From assembly GCA_963818475.1 (NCBI GenBank), contig CAWFSF010000006.1, forward strand, positions 640,001 through 704,000: a stretch of DNA of 64,000 bases, written 5' to 3'. Under the pieces are notes generated by a model that saw nothing but the letters and a program-made list of their open reading frames with translations, was not told the origin of the DNA and made no database searches. This document shows positions 8,939 to 63,853 of the stretch, piece after piece (position 1 is the stretch's first letter; every line of letters starts with the position of its first letter). The position numbers and the translations under genes were made by a program. The stretch is from Nitrospirota bacterium. Lineage in GTDB: Bacteria; Nitrospirota; UBA9217.

Positions 8939-10298
8939 CTAGGGCAGATCAACCTTCAGTTTTTTCAGCTTCCGGTACAGGGTCGCCAGGTCGACGCCAA
9001 GCGCTTCGGCAGTCGTCTCCTTGTTCCCCTTATGCTCGGTCAGGCTGCGTTTGATGTATTCCCGCTCGTAGCGTATCCAGCGCCTGGCGAAGTGATGAGG
9101 TGGGAACCCCTTCGAGGTCCAGGGTCCTGAACTTGTCCGGAAGATCGTGGATGGTGATCGTGTCGCCGTCAGCCAGAACAACCGCACGTTCGATGGTGTT
9201 CCCGAGCTCGCGGATGTTGCCCGGCCAGTCATAGGCGAGCATGGCCTGCATGGCCTCGTAGTCGATATCCTTGATGTTCTTGCAGGCCTCCTTGGCGAAG
9301 ATCGCCATATAGTGCTTGATGAGCACCGCAATATCGTCGCGCCGTTCCCGGAGCGGCGGCATTTTGATCTCGATGACGTTCAGGCGGTAGTAGAGGTCTT
9401 CACGGAAGCGCCCTTCCTTTACGCGCTGCGCCAGGTCGGCATTCGTGGCCGCGATGACCCTGACATCGACATTGATGACGCGGGTGTCGCCGACCGGCGT
9501 CAGCTCCCTGGTCTGGATCACGTGCAGCAGCTTGACCTGCAGCGACAGCGGCATTTCACCGATCTCGTCCAGGAACAGCGTTCCGCCGTTCGCCATGGTG
9601 ATGAGCCCTTTTTTGTCCTCATTGGCCGAGGTAAACGAGCCTTTCTTATGGCCGAAGAGCTCGCTTTCGAGCAGGTTCTCGGGGATCGCGCCGCAGTTGA
9701 TCGAGATGAACGGCTTGTCCTTGCGCGGACCGGACTCATGGATCGCCTGCGCGACCAGGCCTTTGCCGGTGCCGCTGTCGCCGGTTATCAGGATGTTGGT
9801 CTTGCTGGGGATCACTTTTTCCATGATGGCGAAGATCTTCACCATGGCGTCCGATGTCCCGATGATCGCTGAAAAGGCAGCCGGCCGCTGACTGAGCTCC
9901 TGGCGAAGGATCTGGTTCTCCATCTCGAGGTTCTTGCTGCCGATGATGCGTTTGACGGACAGGCGGATCTCATCGTTGATGAAGGGTTTGGTAATATAAT
10001 CGGTTGCGCCGGCCTTCATGGCCTCGACGGCTGAACCGACCGAGCCGAAGGAGGTCATCATGATCACCGACGTCACCGGACTGATCTTCTGGGTCTCTCG
10101 AAGGACTGCGAAGCCGTCCATTTTCTCCATCTTGATATCGGTCATCACGATGTCGAAATTTTCCTGCTTGATAAGGTCGATGGCCATTTCACCGTTATAG
10201 GCTTCCTTGACCGCATAGCCCTCTTTTGACAGGATGAAATTCAACGCCTTGCAAATATCTTTTTCGTCATCAACGACCAGGATGCTGGATTTCTGCAT
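8939..10298 (-). CDS. Sigma54-dependent response regulator, NtrC family (frameshift near 9070)
   Basis: REC domain, GDSGTGKG, ESELFGH, GSFTSA, LFLDEIG, FREDLYYRLN; Fis-type HTH in ORF 8939-9331. Confidence 0.92.
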
Positions 10299-16508: not shown

Positions 16509-16880
16509 TTATGTATCCAGGATGGTTTTGACCTTGGTAAGGATTTCCATGGGGCTGAAGGGCTTGACGATATATTCGTTCGCGCCTGCTTCTTTGCCGC
16601 GTTCCTGCTCGGCGACCTGTCCCTTTGCCGTCAGCATGATCACGTAGATATCTTTAAGGTCGGGGTCGGTCTTTATGGCGCGGCAGACGTCGTAGCCGTT
16701 CATGACCGGCATCATGATGTCGAGGAAGAGGATGTCGGGCCGGACCGCACGGACCTGCTTCAGCGCGTCCGCGCCATCCTTGGCAAGCCAGAGCTTGTAG
16801 CCTTCATCCTCAAGCAGGTAGGTGAGCGCTTCCCGGATGTTCTCATTGTCATCAGCTATCAGAATTTTTTTATTATTCAT
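16509..16880 (-). CDS. Single-domain response regulator (receiver)
   Basis: ILIADD, FLDIMMP, MLTAKG, KPFSP. Confidence 0.9.
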   Translation of the reverse strand: MNNKKILIADDNENIREALTYLLEDEGYKLWLAKDGADALKQVRAVRPDILFLDIMMPVMNGYDVCRAIKTDPDLKDIYVIMLTAKGQVAEQERGKEAGANEYIVKPFSPMEILTKVKTILDT

Positions 16881-51465: not shown

Positions 51466-52107
51466 TCATTGACTGGTTTCTTTTTCAGTCTTTCTGATCA
51501 GCAGTCCTGTTGTCGAAACCATTACCCTGAATTCTTCCGTGCTGTTCGAGTTGATGAACGTTGCGGATCCGTACTCAGCATCCAGCAGGGGATTAAGGAC
51601 CGCGAACCTGCGCCGGAGATCGAACAGGTCCAGGGGTTTGTCCTTGGACAGCGAATATACCGTACGGACCTTTGTCGTTTCATCGTCGAGGATCGCGTAG
51701 CGGCCTGCCACACGATCGAGTTCATAGGAGGTGTGCAGCCCGAATATGTTTGCCAGCGGTTTCCATTTGAGAATGTGGGCGTCAATATAAAGCTGATCGC
51801 CGGTGAGAGAGAACTCTTTTTTGCTGCCATCCGGCAGGGAAAACCGGGCGATGAACTTCTGCTCACCGGCCGGCTCAATGTTCACGATTGCCGCAAGGTC
51901 TTCTCTGGTCAATGCGTGGTACCCCTGGATGGCAATGCTTATGGTGCCGAACAGGGTGGACAAGGAGAACATCAGTAACGCGAACACGAAGGTCATGGCC
52001 GTGCCGAATAACTTCCTCTGTTTCAGGGCCGCCATGGTCATGAGGAGAAAAATAAGGCCGAGAAGGGCAAAAAGGATCGAGAAGACGAGCAGCGGGTTCA
52101 TCATCAT
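51466..52107 (-). CDS. Hypothetical membrane protein
   Basis: Two N-terminal TMs; GDQ..IDA.ILKW, LDAEYGSATF. Confidence 0.7.
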   Translation of the reverse strand: MMMNPLLVFSILFALLGLIFLLMTMAALKQRKLFGTAMTFVFALLMFSLSTLFGTISIAIQGYHALTREDLAAIVNIEPAGEQKFIARFSLPDGSKKEFSLTGDQLYIDAHILKWKPLANIFGLHTSYELDRVAGRYAILDDETTKVRTVYSLSKDKPLDLFDLRRRFAVLNPLLDAEYGSATFINSNSTEEFRVMVSTTGLLIRKTEKETSQ

Positions 52108-52217
52108 GTTTTTCCTTTCTCCAAACGCTCCGTCATTCTTTTACATCGGGCAAACTGCGACATTCCACGCTTCAGACGCCCGTCGGGCATGCGTAGTCGC
52201 TGGCAGCTTCTTTCGCA

Positions 52218-53580
<1,363 letters not shown>

Positions 53581-53607
53581 ATTCCCTCTGTTATTTACTA
53601 CTTAGAT

Positions 53608-53737
53608 CCTAACCTGGACAAACCGGAACAAATTTGCCACGAAGGCACGAAGACACGAAGAGAGGCTTGAGCGTCCTTGAGATCTTTATTCGCTCGATGA
53701 TTTAAAGACGTTCTTCGTGTCTTCGTGCCTTCGTGGC
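53608..53737. repeat. Hairpin element E7 (CACGAAG units; perfect 25-bp inverted repeat) with flanking CCTAACCTGGACAAACCGGAAC
   Basis: GCCACGAAGGCACGAAGACACGAAG (53636-53660) and its exact reverse complement (53713-53737). Confidence 0.85.
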
Positions 53738-53754
53738 GGTAATGTTCTCTTGCC

Positions 53755-55271
53755 TCACTTCATCGGCAGCCGGATCAGGAACGTCGTGCCTTTGTCCGGC
53801 TGCGCTGTCCACGGCGATGCAGCCGTCGTGCTCCTCGATGATCTCGTGGACGATGAAGAGGCCCAGGCCCGATCCCTTGCCCACGTCCTTGGTCGTGAAG
53901 AAGGGGTCGAAGATCTTGGGAAGCAGCTCCGGCGGGATGCCCGGCCCGGTGTCGTGGATCTCGATATCGACGGTATCCTCTTCGAGCGTGCATTTGCCGC
54001 GGTACTTGAGGTAGTTGTAGATGCTGTTCTCATCGCCGGCAGCTTGTCCAGGGCGCTGTGCTTCGCGCGGTCACCGTGACCACGCCGTCTCCCTCCACGG
54101 CCTCGATGGCGTTCTTGATGAGGTTCAGGAAGACCTGCTGGATGCGCTGCTTGTCGGCAATGATCATGATGTCCGCAGGAACATCGATCCTGCACCGAGA
54201 CGTTCCCGGTGATCTGGCCTTTGACGAACCGGATGGTCTCTTCGAACAGCCCGTTCAGGGAGAGCTGCTGCTTTTTGAATTCCTTGTCGCGCGAGAACTC
54301 CAGGAGCGAGCGCACGATGTTCCGGGCGCGGTCGGTCTGGTCGTTGATCTGGGCGATCAGTTCTTTTTTGAACTCTCAGCGCTGCCGTCATCGAATTCCT
54401 CGGACAGGATCTGGCTCGATGACGAGATGTTCGACAGCGGGTTGTTCAGCTCGTGCGCCACGCCCGAGAGCAGGGTGCCGAGGGACGCCAGCTTCTCCGA
54501 CTGGACGAGGTGGCGCTGGCGCAGCTCCAGCTCGCGCAGCATCTTGTTGAAGGCATTGGTCAGGGACAGCGATCTCGCGGTCCCGGGAGTCGATGCGGAT
54601 GTTCTCGAACCTGCCGTCGGCGATCTTTTCCATGGTCCGCTCCATGAGCTTCAGCGGCTTCACGACGACCTGGGCCATGATCTGGCCGATGACGAGCACC
54701 ATGAGCCACCAGGACGGCAATGGAAAGGATCAGCACGCGCCGCGAACTGTTCAGCGTGGCCTGCAGGCTTTTCCGCTCGGTTTTCGACGATATCTTCGGC
54801 GACTGGTGATGATGTCCTTGCCGTACTTCCTGATGGTCTTTTCGATGGCTGCTATGGATGAACCCTCCGCCGGCGGCCAGGTGGGAGGCCCTCTGCCGGT
54901 TCAACTTCTCGTAGCGTTCCATATGGTCTTTGTATTTTTCGAGATTGGACGCAAGCGCGGGGAGCTGGTCCTCGGACGTGACCGCAGCAAAGGCAGCGCT
55001 GTTCGCGGCAAGCAGCTGCTGCGCCTTGGTCACATACCGGAGGTTCTCGTCGAAGTCGGACCGCTTTTCGTACAGGAAATAGTTCTTCTCGAACCGTCTG
55101 ATCTCGAGGGTCGTGTCGAAGAATTCGGAGATCGCCTCGCCGAACATGATCTTCTTGTTCGAGAAAGTTGAGCTCCATGTAGGTGAATATGGACAGCCCC
55201 ACGATCATCACCACGACCGCGTAATAGCCGAACCGTATCTTCTGCCGTATGCTTGGCTGGTAGTTGAACAT
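53755..55271 (-). CDS. HAMP sensor histidine kinase (many frameshifts)
   Basis: TM, LEIRRFEKNYFLY periplasmic domain, [20 protein letters not shown]. Confidence 0.85.
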
Positions 55272-55278
55272 GGTTTAT

Positions 55279-55418
55279 CCTGAATCCGGACAAGCCGGAA
55301 CGCAGATATTGCTGCCACGAATGACACGAAGGCACGAAGAAATGCCTGAGTCTCACGGGTTGTCTATAAACAATAAGTTATTACAGACGTTACTTAGCGT
55401 CATTCGCGCCTTCGTGGC
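55279..55418. repeat. Hairpin element E8 (CACGAA units) with flanking CCGGACAAGCCGGAAC
   Basis: GCCACGAATGACACGAAGGCACGAAG ... CTTAGCGTCATTCGCGCCTTCGTGGC. Confidence 0.78.
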
Positions 55419-55443
55419 AAAATGGTCTGATCGTTTTGAGATC

Positions 55444-57442
55444 TTATCTCAACACTGCCTCAGCTGCCTCGGCCACCGTATCGACCAGTTTGATCGTGAT
55501 GCCGCGCCTGATCTCTTCCGAAAGCTCCTCCACGTCGACCCGGTTCTTTGCCGGCATGATGATGGTGGCCACCTTCGCGCGCTTCGCCGCAAGCACTTTT
55601 TCCCTGATGCCGCCCACCGGCAGGATCCTGCCGGTCAGCGTGATCTCGCCGGTCATGGCCACATCGCGCCGGGCAGGCCGTTTGGTCAGGAGCGACAGGA
55701 GCGCCACGGCGATCGTGATGCCTGCCGACGGGCCGTCCTTCTGGATGGCGCCGCCCGGCACATGGATATGGATGTCCTGGCGTTCGAAGAAGTTCTCGTC
55801 GATCCCGAAGGCGGCGGCGCTGCTCCTGATGTAGCTCAGCGCGGCCTGCACGGATTCGCGCATCACCTCGCCGAGCGAACCGGTGATGATCAGCTCCTTG
55901 TCGCCCTTCATCCGGGCCGCCTCGACGAAGATGATGTCGCCGCCGGCCCCGGTCCAGACCAGGCCGGTGGTCACGCCGATCCGGTCCTGCTCCTCGATCA
56001 CCTCGAATTGGATACTTCCGTTTGCCCAGAAAGTGCTCGACCTGATCGGTCGTGACGCGGACCGCGCCGTCAGCCTCGCCCTGGAGCGACTCCTTGGCGA
56101 TCTTGCGGCAGATCGTGGCGATCTTCCGCTCCAGGCTCCTGATGCCGGCCTCGCGCGTGTATTCCTGGATGATCTTCTGCACCGCATCGGCGGCGAAGCC
56201 GACCCGGTTCGTTGACAGGCCTTTTTCCCTGATCTGCTTCGGCACCAGGAACCGCGCCGCGATCTGCGCCTTCTCCTCCTGCGTATAGCCCGGGAACTCG
56301 ATCACCTCCATGCGGTCCCGGAGGGGAGCGTGGATGGTGTCGAGCAGGTTGGCGGTCACGATGAACATGACGCTCGAAAGGTCGAAGGGCACGTCAAGGT
56401 AGTGGTCGACGAAGGCCTGGTTCTGCTCCGGGTCGAGCACCTCCAGGAGCGCCGAGGCCGGGTCGCCCTTGAAGTCGTGGCCGATCTTGTCCAGTTCGTC
56501 CAGCATGATCACGGGGTTCGCCGTCTCCAGCCGGCGGATCTCCTCGATGATGCGGCCCGGCTTGGCGCCCACATAGGTCCGGCGGTGCCCGCGGATGTCG
56601 GCCTCGTCCTTCATGCCCGCCCAGTGCGATGCGCGTGAATTTCCTTCCCAGCGCCTGCGCCACGGCCCTGCCGACGGAGGTCTTGCCGGTGCCGGGAGGG
56701 CCGGAGAAGCAGAGGACCGAGCCCTTGGTGCTCTTGACCACGGCCTTTTTCTCAAGCGCCTTGCGTACGGCGCTCGCGCACCTCGTCGAGCTTGAAGGGC
56801 TTGGCAATGTAATCGAAGGCGCCTTTCTTGACCGCCTCAATGGCCGAAGAGATCGAGGCAAAGCCGGTCACCACGATCACTTTGATGTCCGGGTAGCGGC
56901 CGCCGATCTTCTCGAGCAGTTCCATGCCGTCCAGGGACGCCATCTTCAGATCGGTAAGGACCACATCGAACTCGTGGGCTTCGAGCTTTCGGAGCGCGTC
57001 AGCGCCGTCCAGCAGCCGTGACCACTTCATACTGTTCCCTGGTCAGAACGTGTTCGAGGTTCTTGCGCGCGATCTCTTCATCGTCGACCACCAGGATGAG
57101 CGGTTTCCGGTTCAGCCGCATGACCTTTACGGCCAGGTGCTCCATGATGCGTTCTTTGACCTTGTTCAGGCCGTAGTGGTTCTCGTTCAGGAGCCGCTCG
57201 GCGCGCGCCAGGTCGAGGTTGTCTTCGGTCTTTTTGTTCCAGGGCAGGGTGACCAGGTAATCGATGTAGGTGAGGCCGATGGAATATTCGGCAGAGGCAG
57301 GGCTGATCTTGGTGAGCATCTCCAGTTCCTGCTCAGCGATCTTCTCGACGCCTGCAGGCATTTTTGCGTCAACGACCTTGCGCCGCAGATCGGCAACATT
57401 TGACTGCTGTTCACTGTCCTCGGATTTTTTGAAAAAACTCAT
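55444..57442 (-). CDS. lon: Lon (endopeptidase La) lacking the N-terminal domain, with an inserted response-regulator receiver domain (frameshifts)
   Basis: [14 protein letters not shown], then REC (ILVVDD..LTDLKM..KPF), [44 protein letters not shown]. Confidence 0.88.
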
Positions 57443-57644
57443 GGTCCACCGCCGTCTTATTGGAGTGTTACAAAATACAACGTTTTCAGTTCCGATGCAA
57501 CACTTAAATTAATCCTTACAATACAACGGTTAACAATATCAGAATGAATATCCTATTGCAAAGTAAAACATTTCGGTCAGGAGGCCAAATAGGAATGGCC
57601 GATAACTTATCTCTGTTATCAACATGTTATGAGTTTATCTCTCT

Positions 57645-57661
57645 TTGGCACGGGAAATGTA
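57645..57661 (+). promoter_or_regulatory. Putative sigma54 (-24/-12) promoter
   Basis: TTGGCACGGGAAATGTA: GG-N10-GT (non-canonical -12), 37 bp upstream of ATG 57698; two bEBP genes are in the cluster. Confidence 0.55.
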
Positions 57662-57697
57662 ATAAGAGAAGTATCTTACCACACAGGAGGCAACAAA

Positions 57698-57874
57698 ATG
57701 AAAAGCTTACTTAAGAAGTTCGAAACAACCATGGTGGCAGCAGCCTTTGCCGAGGAAGGCGAATTCGAGACTGCACGGCAGATCATGAAGGAAGAGACCG
57801 TACGGAAGACCGACCGGCCTGCAACGCGCGACCAGAAGCGTCCGACCGCACGCAAGGAGCTCCGCGCCAACTAA
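57698..57874 (+). CDS. Small hypothetical protein with AAAFAEEG motif
   Basis: AGGAGG RBS; MKSLLKKFETTMVAAAFAEEGEFETARQIM. Confidence 0.7.
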   Translation: MKSLLKKFETTMVAAAFAEEGEFETARQIMKEETVRKTDRPATRDQKRPTARKELRAN

Positions 57875-57901
57875 CGCATCGATGTTCACTGAGGTCCGAT
57901 C

Positions 57902-58413
57902 ATGGGGATGGACAGATTGAAGAAGATGATGAAGCAGATAGAGGACGTGATGGCGGCAGCGACCTTTGCGGAAGAAGGGGTGCCGGATGCTGCCCGCTCC
58001 CTGCTCGGTGAAGGGCGGCGGGTGCTGCTCGGCCTGAAAGAGGGCCGGATCGATGCCAGGACGCTCAAGTACGCCTTGAACACGTCAAAAAGGATCAATG
58101 CCCAGCTCGACATCCTGTTCGTCACGTCCGGGGCAGGGCCGTCAGACAGTGCTGTCGTTCCTGATGCGGACCTCGTGCGCTTCCAGGAAACATTGAGGAA
58201 GGAAGGAGTTCCTTATCGCCTCATCCGCGAAGCGGCTGTCTCAAACAGCAGATCATCGAGCATACCCAGAAGGACAAGGAGATCGCCTTCGCGATCATCG
58301 AGTCCCCGAACAGCCTGGAGAGGGACTGCAACAAAAAGGATAAAACGCTTTCGGAACTGTGGCAGAAACTGAAATGCCCGCTCGTCGTGGTCATGGACGA
58401 AGCGAGGGTGTAG
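57902..58413 (+). CDS. USP-like protein with N-terminal AATFAEEG motif (frameshift near 58230)
   Basis: RVLLG..LKYALN..LDILFV; C-terminal CPLVVV. Confidence 0.65.
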
Positions 58414-58418
58414 CACGG

Positions 58419-58465
58419 AATTCGGATTGCGGAATGCGGAATGAATGACAAAAGATCGAAGATAG
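58419..58465. repeat. Intergenic heptamer tandem repeats (A(T/A)TGCGG; AAGAT(C/A)G)
   Basis: AATTCGG ATTGCGG AATGCGG AATGA; same unit as the queC insertion. Confidence 0.6.
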
Positions 58466-58507
58466 AAACATAACACATCGTTAGTCATCATATAAGGAGG
58501 AATTACA

Positions 58508-58760
58508 ATGGCACACAGCACTACCAAGAAGAAGCCGGTGGCTGCAATGATCGTTATGGGTATCATCTCCATAGCGCTCTATGCGACACTCCTGCTGAAG
58601 CAGGACCTGATCAACGAGCACCTTCGCAAAGGGCGGCATGTACGCGTTGCTGCCGATCATCACGGCATTCGTATTTTCGTACTTTCACGGCGGGTTCACC
58701 GGTCATTTCTGGACCGTTCTGGGCGTCGAAGCAGCACGCAAGAAAAAGGAGGTAAAGTAA
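58508..58760 (+). CDS. Small two-TM membrane protein (frameshift near 58620)
   Basis: AAGGAGG RBS; LPIITAFVFSYFHGGFTGHFWTVLG. Confidence 0.65.
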
Positions 58761-58761
58761 C

Positions 58762-59845
58762 ATGCACGACATAGCGACGAGTTTCATCAATCTTGATGCG
58801 ATCACCATCCTTTATCTCTTCGGCGTCGGATTCGTAGGCGGTCTGGTCAGCGGCTTCATCGGCTCCGGCGGCGCGTTCGTGCTCACGCCCGGCATGATGA
58901 GCCTCGGCGTCCCCGGTCTCATGGCCGTGGCGAGCAACATGTGCCACAAGTTCCCCAAGGCGCTCGTGGGCGCCATGAAGCGGTTCAAGTACGGCCAGGT
59001 CGACGTGAAGCTCGGCGTCGTCCTCGGCGTATCGGCTGAAGCAGGCGTCCTGTACGGCGCAGGCATCCAGGAGAAGATCAAGGCGGCCTACGGCGACGCA
59101 GGCTCCAACCTCTATGTGAGCGTGGCCTTTGTCGTGATCCTGGCGACCGTCGGCGGCTTTGTTCTCTATGATGCCTGGAAGACCTATAAATCAGGCAATG
59201 CCAACGACGGAAGAGAAGGCCGGCAAGCTCGCAAAATGGGTGCAGTCCATCAACATCCCCGGCACCATGGTCTATTTCAAGAGCATCAATGCCCGCGTTT
59301 CGGTCCTGTTCACCATCCCGCTCGGCTTTGCAACAGGCATGCTGGCCGCGACGATCGCGGTCGGCGGTTTCGTCGGCGTTCCTGCGATGATCTATGTCCT
59401 CGGCGCACCGAGCCTCATGGCCTCGGCCACGGAGCTCGTGATCGCTTTCGTCATGGGTCTCGGCGGTTCGTTCAAGTATGCCATGCACGGCATGGTCGAC
59501 ATCCGGCTCGCCATGATCATCCTGGCCGGTTCGCTCTTCGGCATCCAGCTCGGCGCCATCGGCACCACCTATGTGAAGCCCTTCATGATCAAGGTCGTCA
59601 TGGGCGTGATCATGGTGATCGTGCTCTTCAGCCGCGGACTCATGGTTCCGGTGTATCTGTCCCAGCTCGGCCTCATCGACACGCTCGGCGACGCCACCGT
59701 AAAGTTGCTTAAAAACACCAGCTTTGCTATAATGATCTTCGCATTGCTGCTCGGCGCCTTCATCGTCCTTCGGGCCATGTGGCAGGGGAAACAGGCCGAG
59801 AAACTGCTGCACGCGTCAGGAGCACTGGAGCATGGGGAAGTATAG
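58762..59845 (+). CDS. TauE/SafE (TSUP) sulfite-exporter family protein (frameshift near 59210)
   Basis: SGFIGSGGAFVLTP, GQVDVKLG, AVGGFVGVPAMIY. Confidence 0.85.
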
Positions 59846-60690
59846 AAAGATCCTGGTAGCAATCGACGGTTCGGAATCCAGCCGGAACGCGCCTTCACCA
59901 GGCGTTCAAGCTGGCGAACGAAGAAAAATGCTGGATCACGGTCACCTCGGTGGTCCCGCCCTACGACGGGCGAGATCGAGATCGTGGGCGTCAAGGACAT
60001 CCGGGCGGCCCTCAGGAAACCCTGCGAGGACGCCATTGCGGAAGTGGAGCACATCGCCAGGACCGAGCGGATGCTCGATCAAAACGGTCTGCGAGGAAGG
60101 CGAGGTCTACGAGCGCATCGTAGATCTGGCCGATGCCGAGAACTGCGATGTCATTATCATGGGGCGGCGCGGGCGTCCATCATGTCGAACGCAGCCTGAT
60201 CGGGAGCGTGACGGCCCGGGTCATCGGCCATACCCAGCGCGATGTGCTGGTCGTGCCGAACAACACGGTTATCGGGTGGAAGACGATCGTTCTCGCGACC
60301 GACGGTTCGAGGTACAGCTCGGTGGCAACTGAAAAGGCGATCTCCTTCGCGCAGTCCTACGGTGGAGAACTGAGGGTCGTTTCCGTTGCTGATGTGCCCG
60401 CGGAATTTTACGCTGAAGCGCCCCAGGCGGTCGACGACCTGGTCAAGAAGGCAAAGGGCTATGTTGCCGGCGTAAAAAAGCAGGCTGAAGCTGCCGGCGT
60501 GAAAGCGGAAACCTTTGTGGGCGAGTCCGAAGCCTTCGAGGCCATAACCAATCTCGCCAAAGAGCAGAAGGCGGACATGATCGTTATCGGCTCTCATGGC
60601 AGGACAGGCCTCCGGAGGCTGCTTATGGGGAGCGTGGCGGAGAAGGTCATCGGTTATGCACCCTGTCCGGTGCTGGTAGTGAAATCGTAA
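59832..60690 (+). CDS. Tandem universal stress protein (frameshifts)
   Basis: ILVAIDGSE, GSVTARVI, LATDGS, GSHGRTGLRRLLMGSVAEKV, CPVLVV. Confidence 0.9.
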
Positions 60691-60940: not shown

Positions 60941-62521
60941 ATGTCGCTTAAAAGAAAAATCGTCCTCAGCTTTTTCATCAGCGCCTTCATCATCGCCATC
61001 CTTGCGGCCTTCGAGTATCTCAGTTTCGTGGAGATCAGGAAGGAGATCCGCTACCTCGAGATCACCGACACGATCAGCAGAAAGTCACTCCAGCTGCGGC
61101 GGCATGAAAAGAACTATTTTCTGTACAGCCCGGAGCAGATGGAAGAAGAATCATCAGCGGTCCATACCTATCTCGGCGAGCTCAAAGACCTCCTTATCCA
61201 AGAATCCCGGCATCGACCGGGCGGACAATCTTTCGCTGCACAAAAGCATCATCGAGTATGAACAGCGGTTTACGGCTATTGAGAGCGAAGCCAGGCGTCT
61301 GTCCGGTCTCTTTCAGCAGATAAAGGCAACGTACCAAAAAAGCGAAAAGAAGTATTTCCCGCTGGTGGAGGCGACGTTTCTCGAACGGCCTGTCCGGTCC
61401 GCTGAGTTCCTGGAAACCCTGTTCCTTCTGCCCCGCGGCCATGCCCTGACCAGCGGCCTCCGGTCCCTTGGCGAGAATATTGTCTCGCTCAGAAAGACGG
61501 GTGAGGACATCCTGGTGATCTCCAAGGACCTCGACAAGATCGCCCGCGAGAAGGCCGAGACCGTGATCCGGGTGTCGCAGATCGCCATTCTCGTTTTCTT
61601 TCCCTTGTTCTTTTTCGTCGGCATCGGCATGCTGTTCTTTATCAGCACGAACGTGGTGCGAAGGCTCATGCTGCTGATCAATGTCGTGGAGCGGACCGGA
61701 AAAGGCTCCTATCCCCATCTGACGGTCCCGCGCGAAAAGGGCAGGGCCAGGACGAGGTGGGCGTGCTGATCGACAAGTTCAACGATATGGAAGACCAGCT
61801 TGCCGTGCGTGAGGCGGAGCTGGAGCGTAAGAACCAGGAACTGATGCAGACCAAGAAACTCGCCGCCATCGGCACGCTTGCCGCCGGCGTAGCGCATGAA
61901 CTGAACAATCCCCTGAACAATATTTATCTCTCGACGCAGGTGCTGGCGCGGGAAGTAAAAGATACCTGTCCGCCGGAGATGAAAGAGGTCTTTAGCGACA
62001 TTCTGTCCCAGACCGATCCGGGTCAAGAAGATCGTCGGCGATCTGCTCGAATTCGCACGGGGAAGGGAGCCGCACTTCCAGGATGTCGAACTGGCCGGCC
62101 TGATCCGCGGCCTCTTCAAACGCCTCCGGAACGACGGGCAGAGCGTCGCATGCACGCTCACGTCGGACCAGGCAGGAAGTCATGGTACGGGCCGACCAGG
62201 GACAGATGGAGCAGGTCTTCATCAATCTCTTCACGAACGCCATCGAAGCCATGGCCGGCCGGGGAGAGCTGCACGTGAACCTTTTCTCAACAGGCGATCT
62301 CGTAACGATCCAGGTCGCTGATTCCGGCGCCGGCATGCCCCGGGAATCGCTGGAAAAGATCTTCGAGCCTTTTTTTACCACCAAGGACAAAGGCACCGGC
62401 CTCGGCCTTGCGATCGTTTACAGTCTCATTAAAAAGCACCACGGCGACATTGCTGTTGACAGCGAAGAGGGCAAGGGCACGACGTTCACGATCACGCTGC
62501 CGAAGAAGGGGACCGCGGACC

Positions 62522-62532
<11 letters not shown>
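60941..62532 (+). CDS. Sensor histidine kinase (several frameshifts)
   Basis: [40 protein letters not shown]. Confidence 0.87.

Positions 62533-63853
<1,321 letters not shown>

Follow-up and report, generated by a model that had tools for sequence, protein, structure and literature searches.

A Lon-type protease with a receiver domain inside its AAA+ module in Nitrospirota and Desulfobacterota

The DNA analysed here, referred to as the window, is a stretch of 64,000 nucleotides from a Nitrospirota bacterium (GenBank assembly GCA_963818475.1, contig CAWFSF010000006.1, positions 640,001 to 704,000 of the forward strand), and all coordinates below are those of the window. Its minus strand carries at 55444..57442 a gene, named here REC-Lon, that comprises 664 codons and a stop once it is read through four single-base insertions; genes for a histidine kinase (HK1) and a sigma-54 activator of the bacterial enhancer-binding protein type (bEBP1) lie downstream on the same strand. 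The listing of open reading frames (ORFs) and a three-frame translation gave a single coding path from the ATG at 57442 to the stop at 55444-55446, spread over five ORF pieces in reverse-strand frames 2, 0, 1, 2 and 0, that is, with four frame switches. In Pfam searches, the match to the receiver domain (REC; Response_reg, PF00072) was divided between two ORF pieces (0.0018 and 9.3e-22), and the other matches on the pieces were AAA (two pieces), Lon_lid (7.8e-20) and Lon_C (3.8e-79). No match to the LON substrate-binding domain was found on any of the five pieces. The analysis thus confirmed that the gene encodes a Lon-type protease with a complete REC inside the AAA+ module, an intact AAA+ lid and a Ser-Lys protease domain.

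Residue numbers follow P0001, an intact 664-residue ortholog from a public collection, all residues of which tile on the window gene in tblastn with 92–98% identity per piece. Its Pfam layout is REC 116-225, AAA 243-383, Lon_lid 405-456 and Lon_C 462-663, where REC scores 104.3 bits against a gathering score of 30.2 and Lon_C scores 277 bits. On the minus strand of the window, the N-terminal helical region (57107..57442, residues 1-112) consists of the last helices of the LonA N-region and the AAA+ helix alpha0, and has no PF02190. REC follows at 56733..57097 (residues ~116-236), with the acidic pair DD 120/121, the acceptor Asp164 (56950-56952), Thr192, Tyr211 and Lys214-Pro215. The AAA+ alpha/beta subdomain and lid occupy 56072..56717 (residues 242-456) and include the Walker A motif GPPGTGKT (56679-56702) and the Walker B residues DE (56495-56500). 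Finally, the Lon_C protease domain (55450..56056, residues 462-663) contains Pro570, the catalytic Ser571 (55726-55728) and the catalytic Lys614 (55597-55599). The positions of the acceptor Asp, Walker A, Walker B, Ser571 and Lys614 were fixed by tblastn of P0001 and bear out the coordinates, e.g., of the acceptor Asp, in the original prediction, a note made earlier from the sequence of this locus alone.

The position of REC within the AAA+ module is sharply defined. In an alignment with the Bacillus subtilis Lon fragment 3m6a, residues 15-107 of P0001 pair with 9-101 of the chain, and its residues 234-660 with 102-527. Because the two flanking stretches align to the adjoining residues 101 and 102, REC with its linkers (~126 residues) is, by this alignment, a clean insertion at a single point where canonical LonA is contiguous. 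The insertion point lies between the helix ...HYGL..VKERILEHLAVK, which is the AAA+ helix alpha0, and the strand beta1 that leads into the P-loop. The original prediction had described a protein without the N-domain, in which REC stands between the pre-Walker-A helix and Walker A, and both Pfam and the 3m6a alignment agree with this description; its reading of the order of an 11-residue stretch, REC and GPPGTGKT was exact. It had also contrasted the protein with canonical LonA, and this contrast holds within the same genome, whose own LonA of 876 residues has PF02190 at 102-294 and just a short loop at the insertion site. As the alignment of the two proteins begins at LonA residue 335, REC-Lon lacks ~330 N-terminal LonA residues, and it starts approximately where N-truncated LonA crystallisation constructs start. 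The helices (LonA residues 335-439) are 39% identical between the two proteins, and over the AAA+ plus protease part (P0001 residues ~234-663) the identity is 51%.

An AlphaFold2 model of P0001 built on an alignment of 70 sequences has a mean predicted local distance difference test (pLDDT) score of 82.5 and a predicted template modelling score (pTM) of 0.69. The N-terminal region is modelled as the helices 6-25, 30-45, 51-65, 78-88 and 93-111, the last of them being alpha0. Three residues after alpha0, REC is predicted to fold as five strand-helix pairs (115-236, pLDDT ~81-91) that begin with beta1 (115-119) and end with alpha5 (218-236), and five residues further on the AAA+ strand beta1 (242-246) begins. 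The top Foldseek matches of the model are LonA chains, with TM-scores of up to 0.89 normalised by target length; none of these best LonA matches has an inserted domain.

Conservation was counted in 150 distinct full-length sequences. The residues of the REC pocket, D120, D121, D164 and K214, are present in all of them, position 192 is Thr in 147 and Ser in three, and position 211 is Tyr in 146 and Phe in four. Equally invariant are Walker A K253/T254, Walker B D314/E315 and the residues N364, R376 and R434, which we take to be sensor-1, the Arg finger and sensor-2 following the motif assignments known for LonA, as well as P570, S571 and K614 of the protease domain, with 42 residues between Ser and Lys. 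The AAA+ motor and the protease look catalytically competent, and the earlier statement that the ATPase motifs and the Ser-Lys dyad of the window gene are intact extends to the whole sample. The linkers are similarly uniform. Counted from LPW (residue 66) through GKTS (residue 256), 69 of 70 sequences of both phyla have a stretch of 191 residues and the remaining one has 192, and the spacing from HYGL to DD is 31 in 126/126 sequences parsed by the pattern (13/139 unparsed). Because the three catalytic modules are kept together and the linkers are constant in length, these comparisons argue for REC-Lon as a working, mechanically coupled unit.

The four frameshifts of the window copy were placed by DNA alignment to the intact genes of two same-genus genomes (L008 and L009), the REC-Lon proteins of which are 96% identical to P0001. 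All four are single-base insertions on the minus strand, located at ~57010 inside REC (exact position ambiguous within a repeated base), at ~56776 at the end of the REC helix alpha5, at ~56618 in a GGG run after Walker A, and at ~56011 in a CC at the start of the protease domain. If these frameshifts were real, the window copy would be a true pseudogene of a formerly functional REC-Lon. This is very improbable in our estimate, although the frameshifts are present in the assembled sequence, and a very recent pseudogenisation in this one genome keeps a small probability because none of 24 public read runs searched contains this strain (best share of sampled words 0.14). Pseudogenisation is at odds with the pattern of the changes, namely exactly four +1 insertions and zero other indels (1999 nt in the window vs 1995 nt in L008 and L009). 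With the inserted columns set aside, the sole stop is the terminal one, and the ratio of nonsynonymous to synonymous substitution rates (dN/dS) against the two intact orthologs is 0.097 and 0.092, the same as between these orthologs themselves (0.098). Also against a pseudogene, the neighbouring bEBP1, HK1, TauE-like, universal stress protein (Usp) and second kinase (HK2) genes are each broken in the same manner into two or more pieces; relative to L009, the HK1 region alone shows six or more additional single-base insertions, together with two single-base deletions. Moreover, the few-contig same-genus assembly G003 is broken at other places, and the copies in the short-contig assemblies G002 and G004 are intact. 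Taken together, the intact orthologs, the dN/dS of 0.09-0.10 and the like damage to the neighbouring genes point to insertion-rich noise of a long-read assembly rather than decay or chimerism as the origin of the four frameshifts, and the source organism most likely has an intact REC-Lon gene.

To assess the size of the family, the N-terminal piece was used as a query for a search of relatives among longer proteins, which gave 2390 matches at E<=1e-3 among 4401 candidates. Both PF00072 and PF05362 were found in 117 of the 120 best relatives, the other three being fragments of 272-473 residues, and 109 of the 120 have a length of 660-680 residues. Where source names are given, they are 'endopeptidase La', 'ATP-dependent Lon protease' or 'response regulator, partial'. 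The first of these names is explained by the TIGR00763 model (endopeptidase La equivalog), whose cut-off of 608.05 bits the family passes with 729.2 and 754.6 bits in two stretches split by REC; the score for a second NCBI model, NF008053, is under its cut-off (584 vs 891). Among 24 genomes of the same family as the window, 14 have an intact full-length copy, four have a partial or broken copy and six have none. A canonical-Lon-type match, defined as one starting only after REC (query residue ~234 or later), is also present in 41/41 genomes searched. In a spread sample of the phylum, matches at E<=1e-200 were found in 63 of 400 genomes, representing eight of 44 families, and 58 of these 63 matches run free of stops from residue 1 to at least 657. 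REC-Lon was not found in three large families of this sample (0/76, 0/40 and 0/28 genomes).

Among named species-representative genomes, 31 loci span the N-terminal helices, REC and Walker A together, including 17 from Nitrospirota, Nitrospirae or Thermodesulfovibrionales, 13 of Desulfobacterota type (among others Desulfobacter, Desulfobulbus, Desulfocapsaceae and Desulfacinum) and one unnamed. One of them belongs to an isolate, the cultured Desulfobacter vibrioformis DSM 8776 (L038). A profile of the N-terminal helices and REC was also compared with a library of 1.84 billion representatives; the matches are dominated by multi-receiver proteins, and of the best 150 representatives only 17 span both the N-terminal helices and REC without a break, while another 11 extend partly across the junction. 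The Lon-REC-AAA-LonC architecture, which the original prediction had proposed to look for in other genomes, is therefore widespread, including in an isolate, and the rarity it had implied was overstated for a family already held in databases as 'endopeptidase La'. The same observations bear on the idea that a response-regulator fragment was joined into a Lon gene by chimeric assembly. Nothing further than the noise of the assembly speaks for such a chimera; identical architecture and junctions recur in hundreds of independent assemblies and one isolate genome, with invariant junction spacing. With hundreds of homologs sharing the architecture, the REC borders are not a chimeric junction, and we consider this explanation ruled out, its probability being negligible.

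Two further observations concern other Lon and receiver genes of the same genome. A third Lon_C-bearing gene (G000:C6:1846461-1847573, L001) matches P0001 from residue 293 only, within a frame of 457 residues, and may be another Lon paralog split by the same assembly noise. In the window, receiver (and AAA) matches to P0001 with 32–33% identity at 9642-10295 and 16515-16865, both on the minus strand, are probably other response regulators.

Compared with the known Lon types, REC-Lon is most similar to LonA (MEROPS S16), represented by solved structures of the B. subtilis (3m6a), M. taiwanensis (4ypl) and E. coli (6u5z) proteins, with which it shares the AAA+ motor and the A-type protease. Solved bacterial LonA chains match it at E-values of 1e-157 to 1e-168. 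The A-type is recognized by a Pro before the catalytic Ser and by 42 residues between Ser and Lys (as given in the available part of PMC9569914), and REC-Lon has both features, along with all the LonA ATPase motifs (Walker A and B, sensor-1, Arg finger and sensor-2), in 150/150 sequences. In contrast to LonA, it lacks the PF02190 N-domain (no match in P0001, P0025 and P0090) and the coiled coil, and it adds the insertion of 126 residues between alpha0 and beta1. The other Lon types described in the same part of PMC9569914 do not accommodate it. In LonB, a membrane anchor separates Walker A from Walker B and an Asp precedes the Ser, whereas in REC-Lon the segment from Walker A to Walker B is contiguous as in LonA and the residue before the Ser is Pro. 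LonC is ATP-independent with degenerate ATPase motifs, all of which are intact in REC-Lon, and LonBA has an N-terminal anchor, whereas the N-terminus of REC-Lon is hydrophilic. LonB, LonC and LonBA nevertheless provide a precedent for elements added in or beside the Lon ATPase domain, none of which, as far as that text goes, is a receiver; the terms 'receiver', 'response regulator' and 'CheY' have no occurrences in it.

A receiver fused to an AAA+ ring ATPase is also characteristic of bEBPs such as NtrC1, DctD and NtrC, the receivers of which belong to the same lineage as that of REC-Lon. In bEBPs, phosphorylation of the receiver controls the assembly or activity of the ring. In REC-Lon, however, REC stands after alpha0 inside the AAA+ module rather than N-terminal to it, and the output is a protease. 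Membership in the bEBP family was rejected, as P0001, P0025 and P0090 have no match to PF00158 or PF02954, both of which are present in the neighbouring genes. Two-component phosphorylation is coupled to proteolysis by RssB and CpdR, receiver adaptors of ClpXP. These act in trans as separate proteins on ClpXP, whereas the receiver of REC-Lon is in cis and on Lon; weak matches to the RssB and CpdR models of NCBIfam were obtained at the level of REC. FixT provides an example of a receiver-type substrate of Lon (described in the available part of PMC7078487). A comparison with the PADLOC anti-phage models gave no full-length match and only domain-level ones to BrxL (1.5e-14, residues 502-659) and DolB (2.4e-14). 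By its motifs and architecture, REC-Lon is a distinct conserved subfamily of Lon. No description of a receiver fused to or inserted in Lon was found in the open-access full text of PubMed Central and bioRxiv, although supplementary tables of census studies may mention one, and the subfamily is apparently uncharacterised even though databases list it under a generic name.

The origin of the inserted receiver can be traced to some extent. The best solved relatives of REC are the NtrC1 receivers 1zy2 and 1ny5, and its best NCBIfam REC matches are AtoC, NtrC, NtrX and ZraR. We further built a maximum-likelihood tree of 65 receivers, taken from the fetched loci only. In this tree, 27 REC domains of Lon and 23 of bEBP1 form one supported clade (97/87), which excludes five receivers of bEBP2, the second sigma-54 activator of these loci, and 10 other receivers of the same loci. 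The tree indicates that among the receivers of the loci that of bEBP1 is the closest relative of the Lon REC. The helix alpha1, which is the main kinase-docking helix of receivers, shows a corresponding pattern. A 12-residue stretch of alpha1 in Lon has its counterpart in DDE(R/K)IAL(K/R)NLEH of bEBP1, but bEBP2 reads EDEEITLKHL, and the pattern IA(R/L)(K/R)NLxH is common to the Lon and bEBP1 receivers, unlike bEBP2. The clade of Lon and bEBP1 receivers and their shared alpha1 would fit one kinase, HK1, that serves both of them. A derivation of the inserted REC from the lineage of the partner activator would fit the data as well.

The gene context was counted over the fetched flanks of 27 loci in which lon is complete. 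In 23 of them the flanks contain an HK1-like as well as a bEBP1-like gene, and an HK1-like gene is present in 26, including three loci with the kinase alone at the locus edge. The original prediction of the order lon-HK-bEBP on one strand was right for the window, and the same order is seen in 11/27 loci. Other arrangements include the pair divergent upstream of lon (3/27) and downstream past three other genes (1/27). For example, in the intact locus L023, lon is followed by HK1 (HAMP, HisKA, HATPase) and then bEBP1 (REC, Sigma54_activat, HTH_8), as identified with Pfam. In 13 genomes of the same family as the window, a receiver match follows lon on its strand at a distance of ~2 kb.

The reading of these data that we prefer is that REC-Lon is switched in its ATP-dependent proteolysis by HK1-mediated phosphorylation of its REC, to which we assign a probability of about 0.6. 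It draws on the conserved residues, the fixed linkers and the gene context. According to this reading, HK1 would phosphorylate two receivers, that of bEBP1 and, at Asp164, that of REC-Lon. Phosphorylated bEBP1 would turn on the neighbouring operon of Usp/TauE type. In REC-Lon, phosphorylation of Asp164 would act through the Thr192/Tyr211 switch to alter the alpha4-beta5-alpha5 face of REC, and helix alpha5, in rigid connection with beta1, could relay the change across five residues to this strand and to Walker A, so that nucleotide handling, ATPase or the state of the ring would be altered. The output would be a switched degradation of a narrow set of substrates tied to the HK1/bEBP1 circuit. 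As for the direction of the switch, activation would be our first expectation, at a little under even odds; inhibition is a minority expectation, REC serving mainly as a docking site a lesser one, and some other outcome is improbable.

Several observations weigh against this reading. The conserved alpha4-beta5-alpha5 motif is a general trait of the NtrC family and alone is no sign of coupling to AAA+. Residues 231-240, near the junction through which the signal would pass, are modelled with low confidence (pLDDT 57). Within the clade of Lon and bEBP1 receivers the tree is an open polytomy, in which the Lon and the bEBP1 receivers each need two changes, and the tree samples only the receivers inside the fetched loci. 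The proximity of the kinase also varies, since the pair is convergent downstream of lon in 4/27 loci and lies 4.5-7.5 kb upstream in another 4/27, and one locus (L041) has neither kinase nor activator in its flanks. The read-run search mentioned above counts on the same side.

An alternative role for REC is that of a recognition module that replaces the N-domain and docks a substrate or adaptor, for instance the receiver of bEBP1 via the alpha4-beta5-alpha5 face, while the motor is constitutive; docking of this kind could be either dependent on phosphorylation or independent of it. The absence of the LonA N-domain and the close relationship of the Lon and bEBP1 receivers would suit this role, and receivers are known as regulators or substrates of AAA+ proteases, as with RssB, CpdR and FixT above. 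However, both linkers are short and of invariant length, which is more in line with mechanical coupling than with a docking domain on a tether, and we rate the docking role as unlikely. It is also conceivable that REC serves HK1 as a phosphate sink or decoy, tuning the phosphorylation of bEBP1 without control of the protease, given that the two receivers are related, have a similar alpha1 and may compete for one kinase. A sink would have no need of an insertion of fixed length in a catalytically intact AAA+ protease, and the strict conservation of all three modules together in 150/150 sequences suggests that they work jointly, which leaves this role improbable.

Beyond the phosphorylation switch, we tentatively propose, as a possibility well short of even odds, that REC-Lon represents the first case of a two-component receiver built into an AAA+ protease and that it forms with bEBP1 two arms of the output of one kinase, whose single phosphoryl signal would start transcription of a small stress/transport operon and simultaneously switch a dedicated protease acting on that circuit. 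If so, its substrates could be the products of the operon or the activator itself, perhaps caught by pairing of the two REC domains, and the locus would be a self-contained synthesis-plus-degradation switch. AAA+ proteolysis is normally controlled in trans, by adaptors, anti-adaptors and modification of substrates. A phosphorylation switch in REC-Lon would represent a direct link from two-component signalling to protein degradation in one polypeptide, and also a natural experiment on the control of an AAA+ ring by a domain at the alpha0/beta1 junction, beside the P-loop. Databases label the family 'endopeptidase La' and so conceal it. It is conserved in two groups, the anaerobic Nitrospirota and the sulfate-reducing Desulfobacterota, every searched genome that has it also has canonical LonA, and at least one strain with it is in culture, which makes the hypothesis directly testable.

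The neighbouring genes of the window are arranged as follows. Downstream of lon on the minus strand, HK1 (53755..55271) is in several pieces, its intact ortholog having a membrane helix, HAMP, HisKA and HATPase, and bEBP1 (52200..53600, ends approximate) is in at least two pieces, with REC, Sigma54_activat and HTH_8 in the intact ortholog. A conserved unit on the plus strand (57698..60690) is divergent from lon and comprises two small Usp-like proteins with an N-terminal AAxFAEEGE motif (57698-57874 and 57902-58372), a TauE/SafE-like permease (58762-59845) and a tandem Usp (59832-60690). It is closed by a second pair of a kinase and a sigma-54 activator, HK2-bEBP2 (60941-63853, plus strand), whose receiver falls outside the clade of Lon and bEBP1 receivers. 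The divergent side of L023 has the same composition, namely a small Usp-like protein, a TauE/SafE-like permease, a tandem Usp, a second kinase and a second activator, and the HK2-bEBP2 pair is found in L020, L023, L034 and L044. Between 52100 and 63900 nearly every gene of the window (bEBP1, HK1, lon, TauE-like, Usp, HK2) is split by single-base indels, with insertions more numerous than deletions relative to the same-genus locus, and only the second activator (62522-63853) reads through.

Among the 27 loci, the TauE-like gene is present in 20, and in the loci of Desulfobacter as well as in L046 and L049 the permease gives way to a membrane protein of ~600 residues. Three loci (L027, L031 and L035) are rearranged, with HK1-bEBP1 divergent upstream and the small Usp-like, TauE-like and Usp genes following lon on the same strand. 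Convergent to lon in Desulfobacter vibrioformis is a gene (L038:10825-12813, minus strand) for a protein of 662 residues with an N-terminal receiver and a kinase-like part.

We also searched for promoter-like sites, all of which are pattern matches only. A scan of 51900-58000 for sigma-70 promoters and terminators gave nothing above shuffled sequences and no minus-strand terminator between lon and HK1. The strict sigma-54 consensus TGGCAC-N5-TTGC, with at most one mismatch, has one match in the window, located elsewhere, vs 4.6 expected by chance. A -24/-12-like element, TGGCAC-N5-ATGT, lies at 57646..57663 on the plus strand, facing the Usp/TauE unit ~50 nt before the ATG at 57698. A relaxed comparison by position across the loci told more than the strict consensus: 12/27 loci (L020, L022-L026, L041-L046) have TGGCAY-N5-TTG at the corresponding place, on the divergent strand and no more than 600 nt upstream of lon, against a chance expectation of ~0.005 per strand per locus, the loci being related to each other; the window element has ATG where the other loci have TTG. 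This element may be a sigma-54 promoter with T or A in place of C at -12. In L027, a -24/-12-like element faces lon. Finally, all three complete Desulfobacter loci (L036, L038 and L040) have GG-N10-GC ~100 nt upstream of lon on its own strand, and in these loci GG-N10-GC is seen on both intergenic strands, ~100 nt and ~390 nt upstream of lon.

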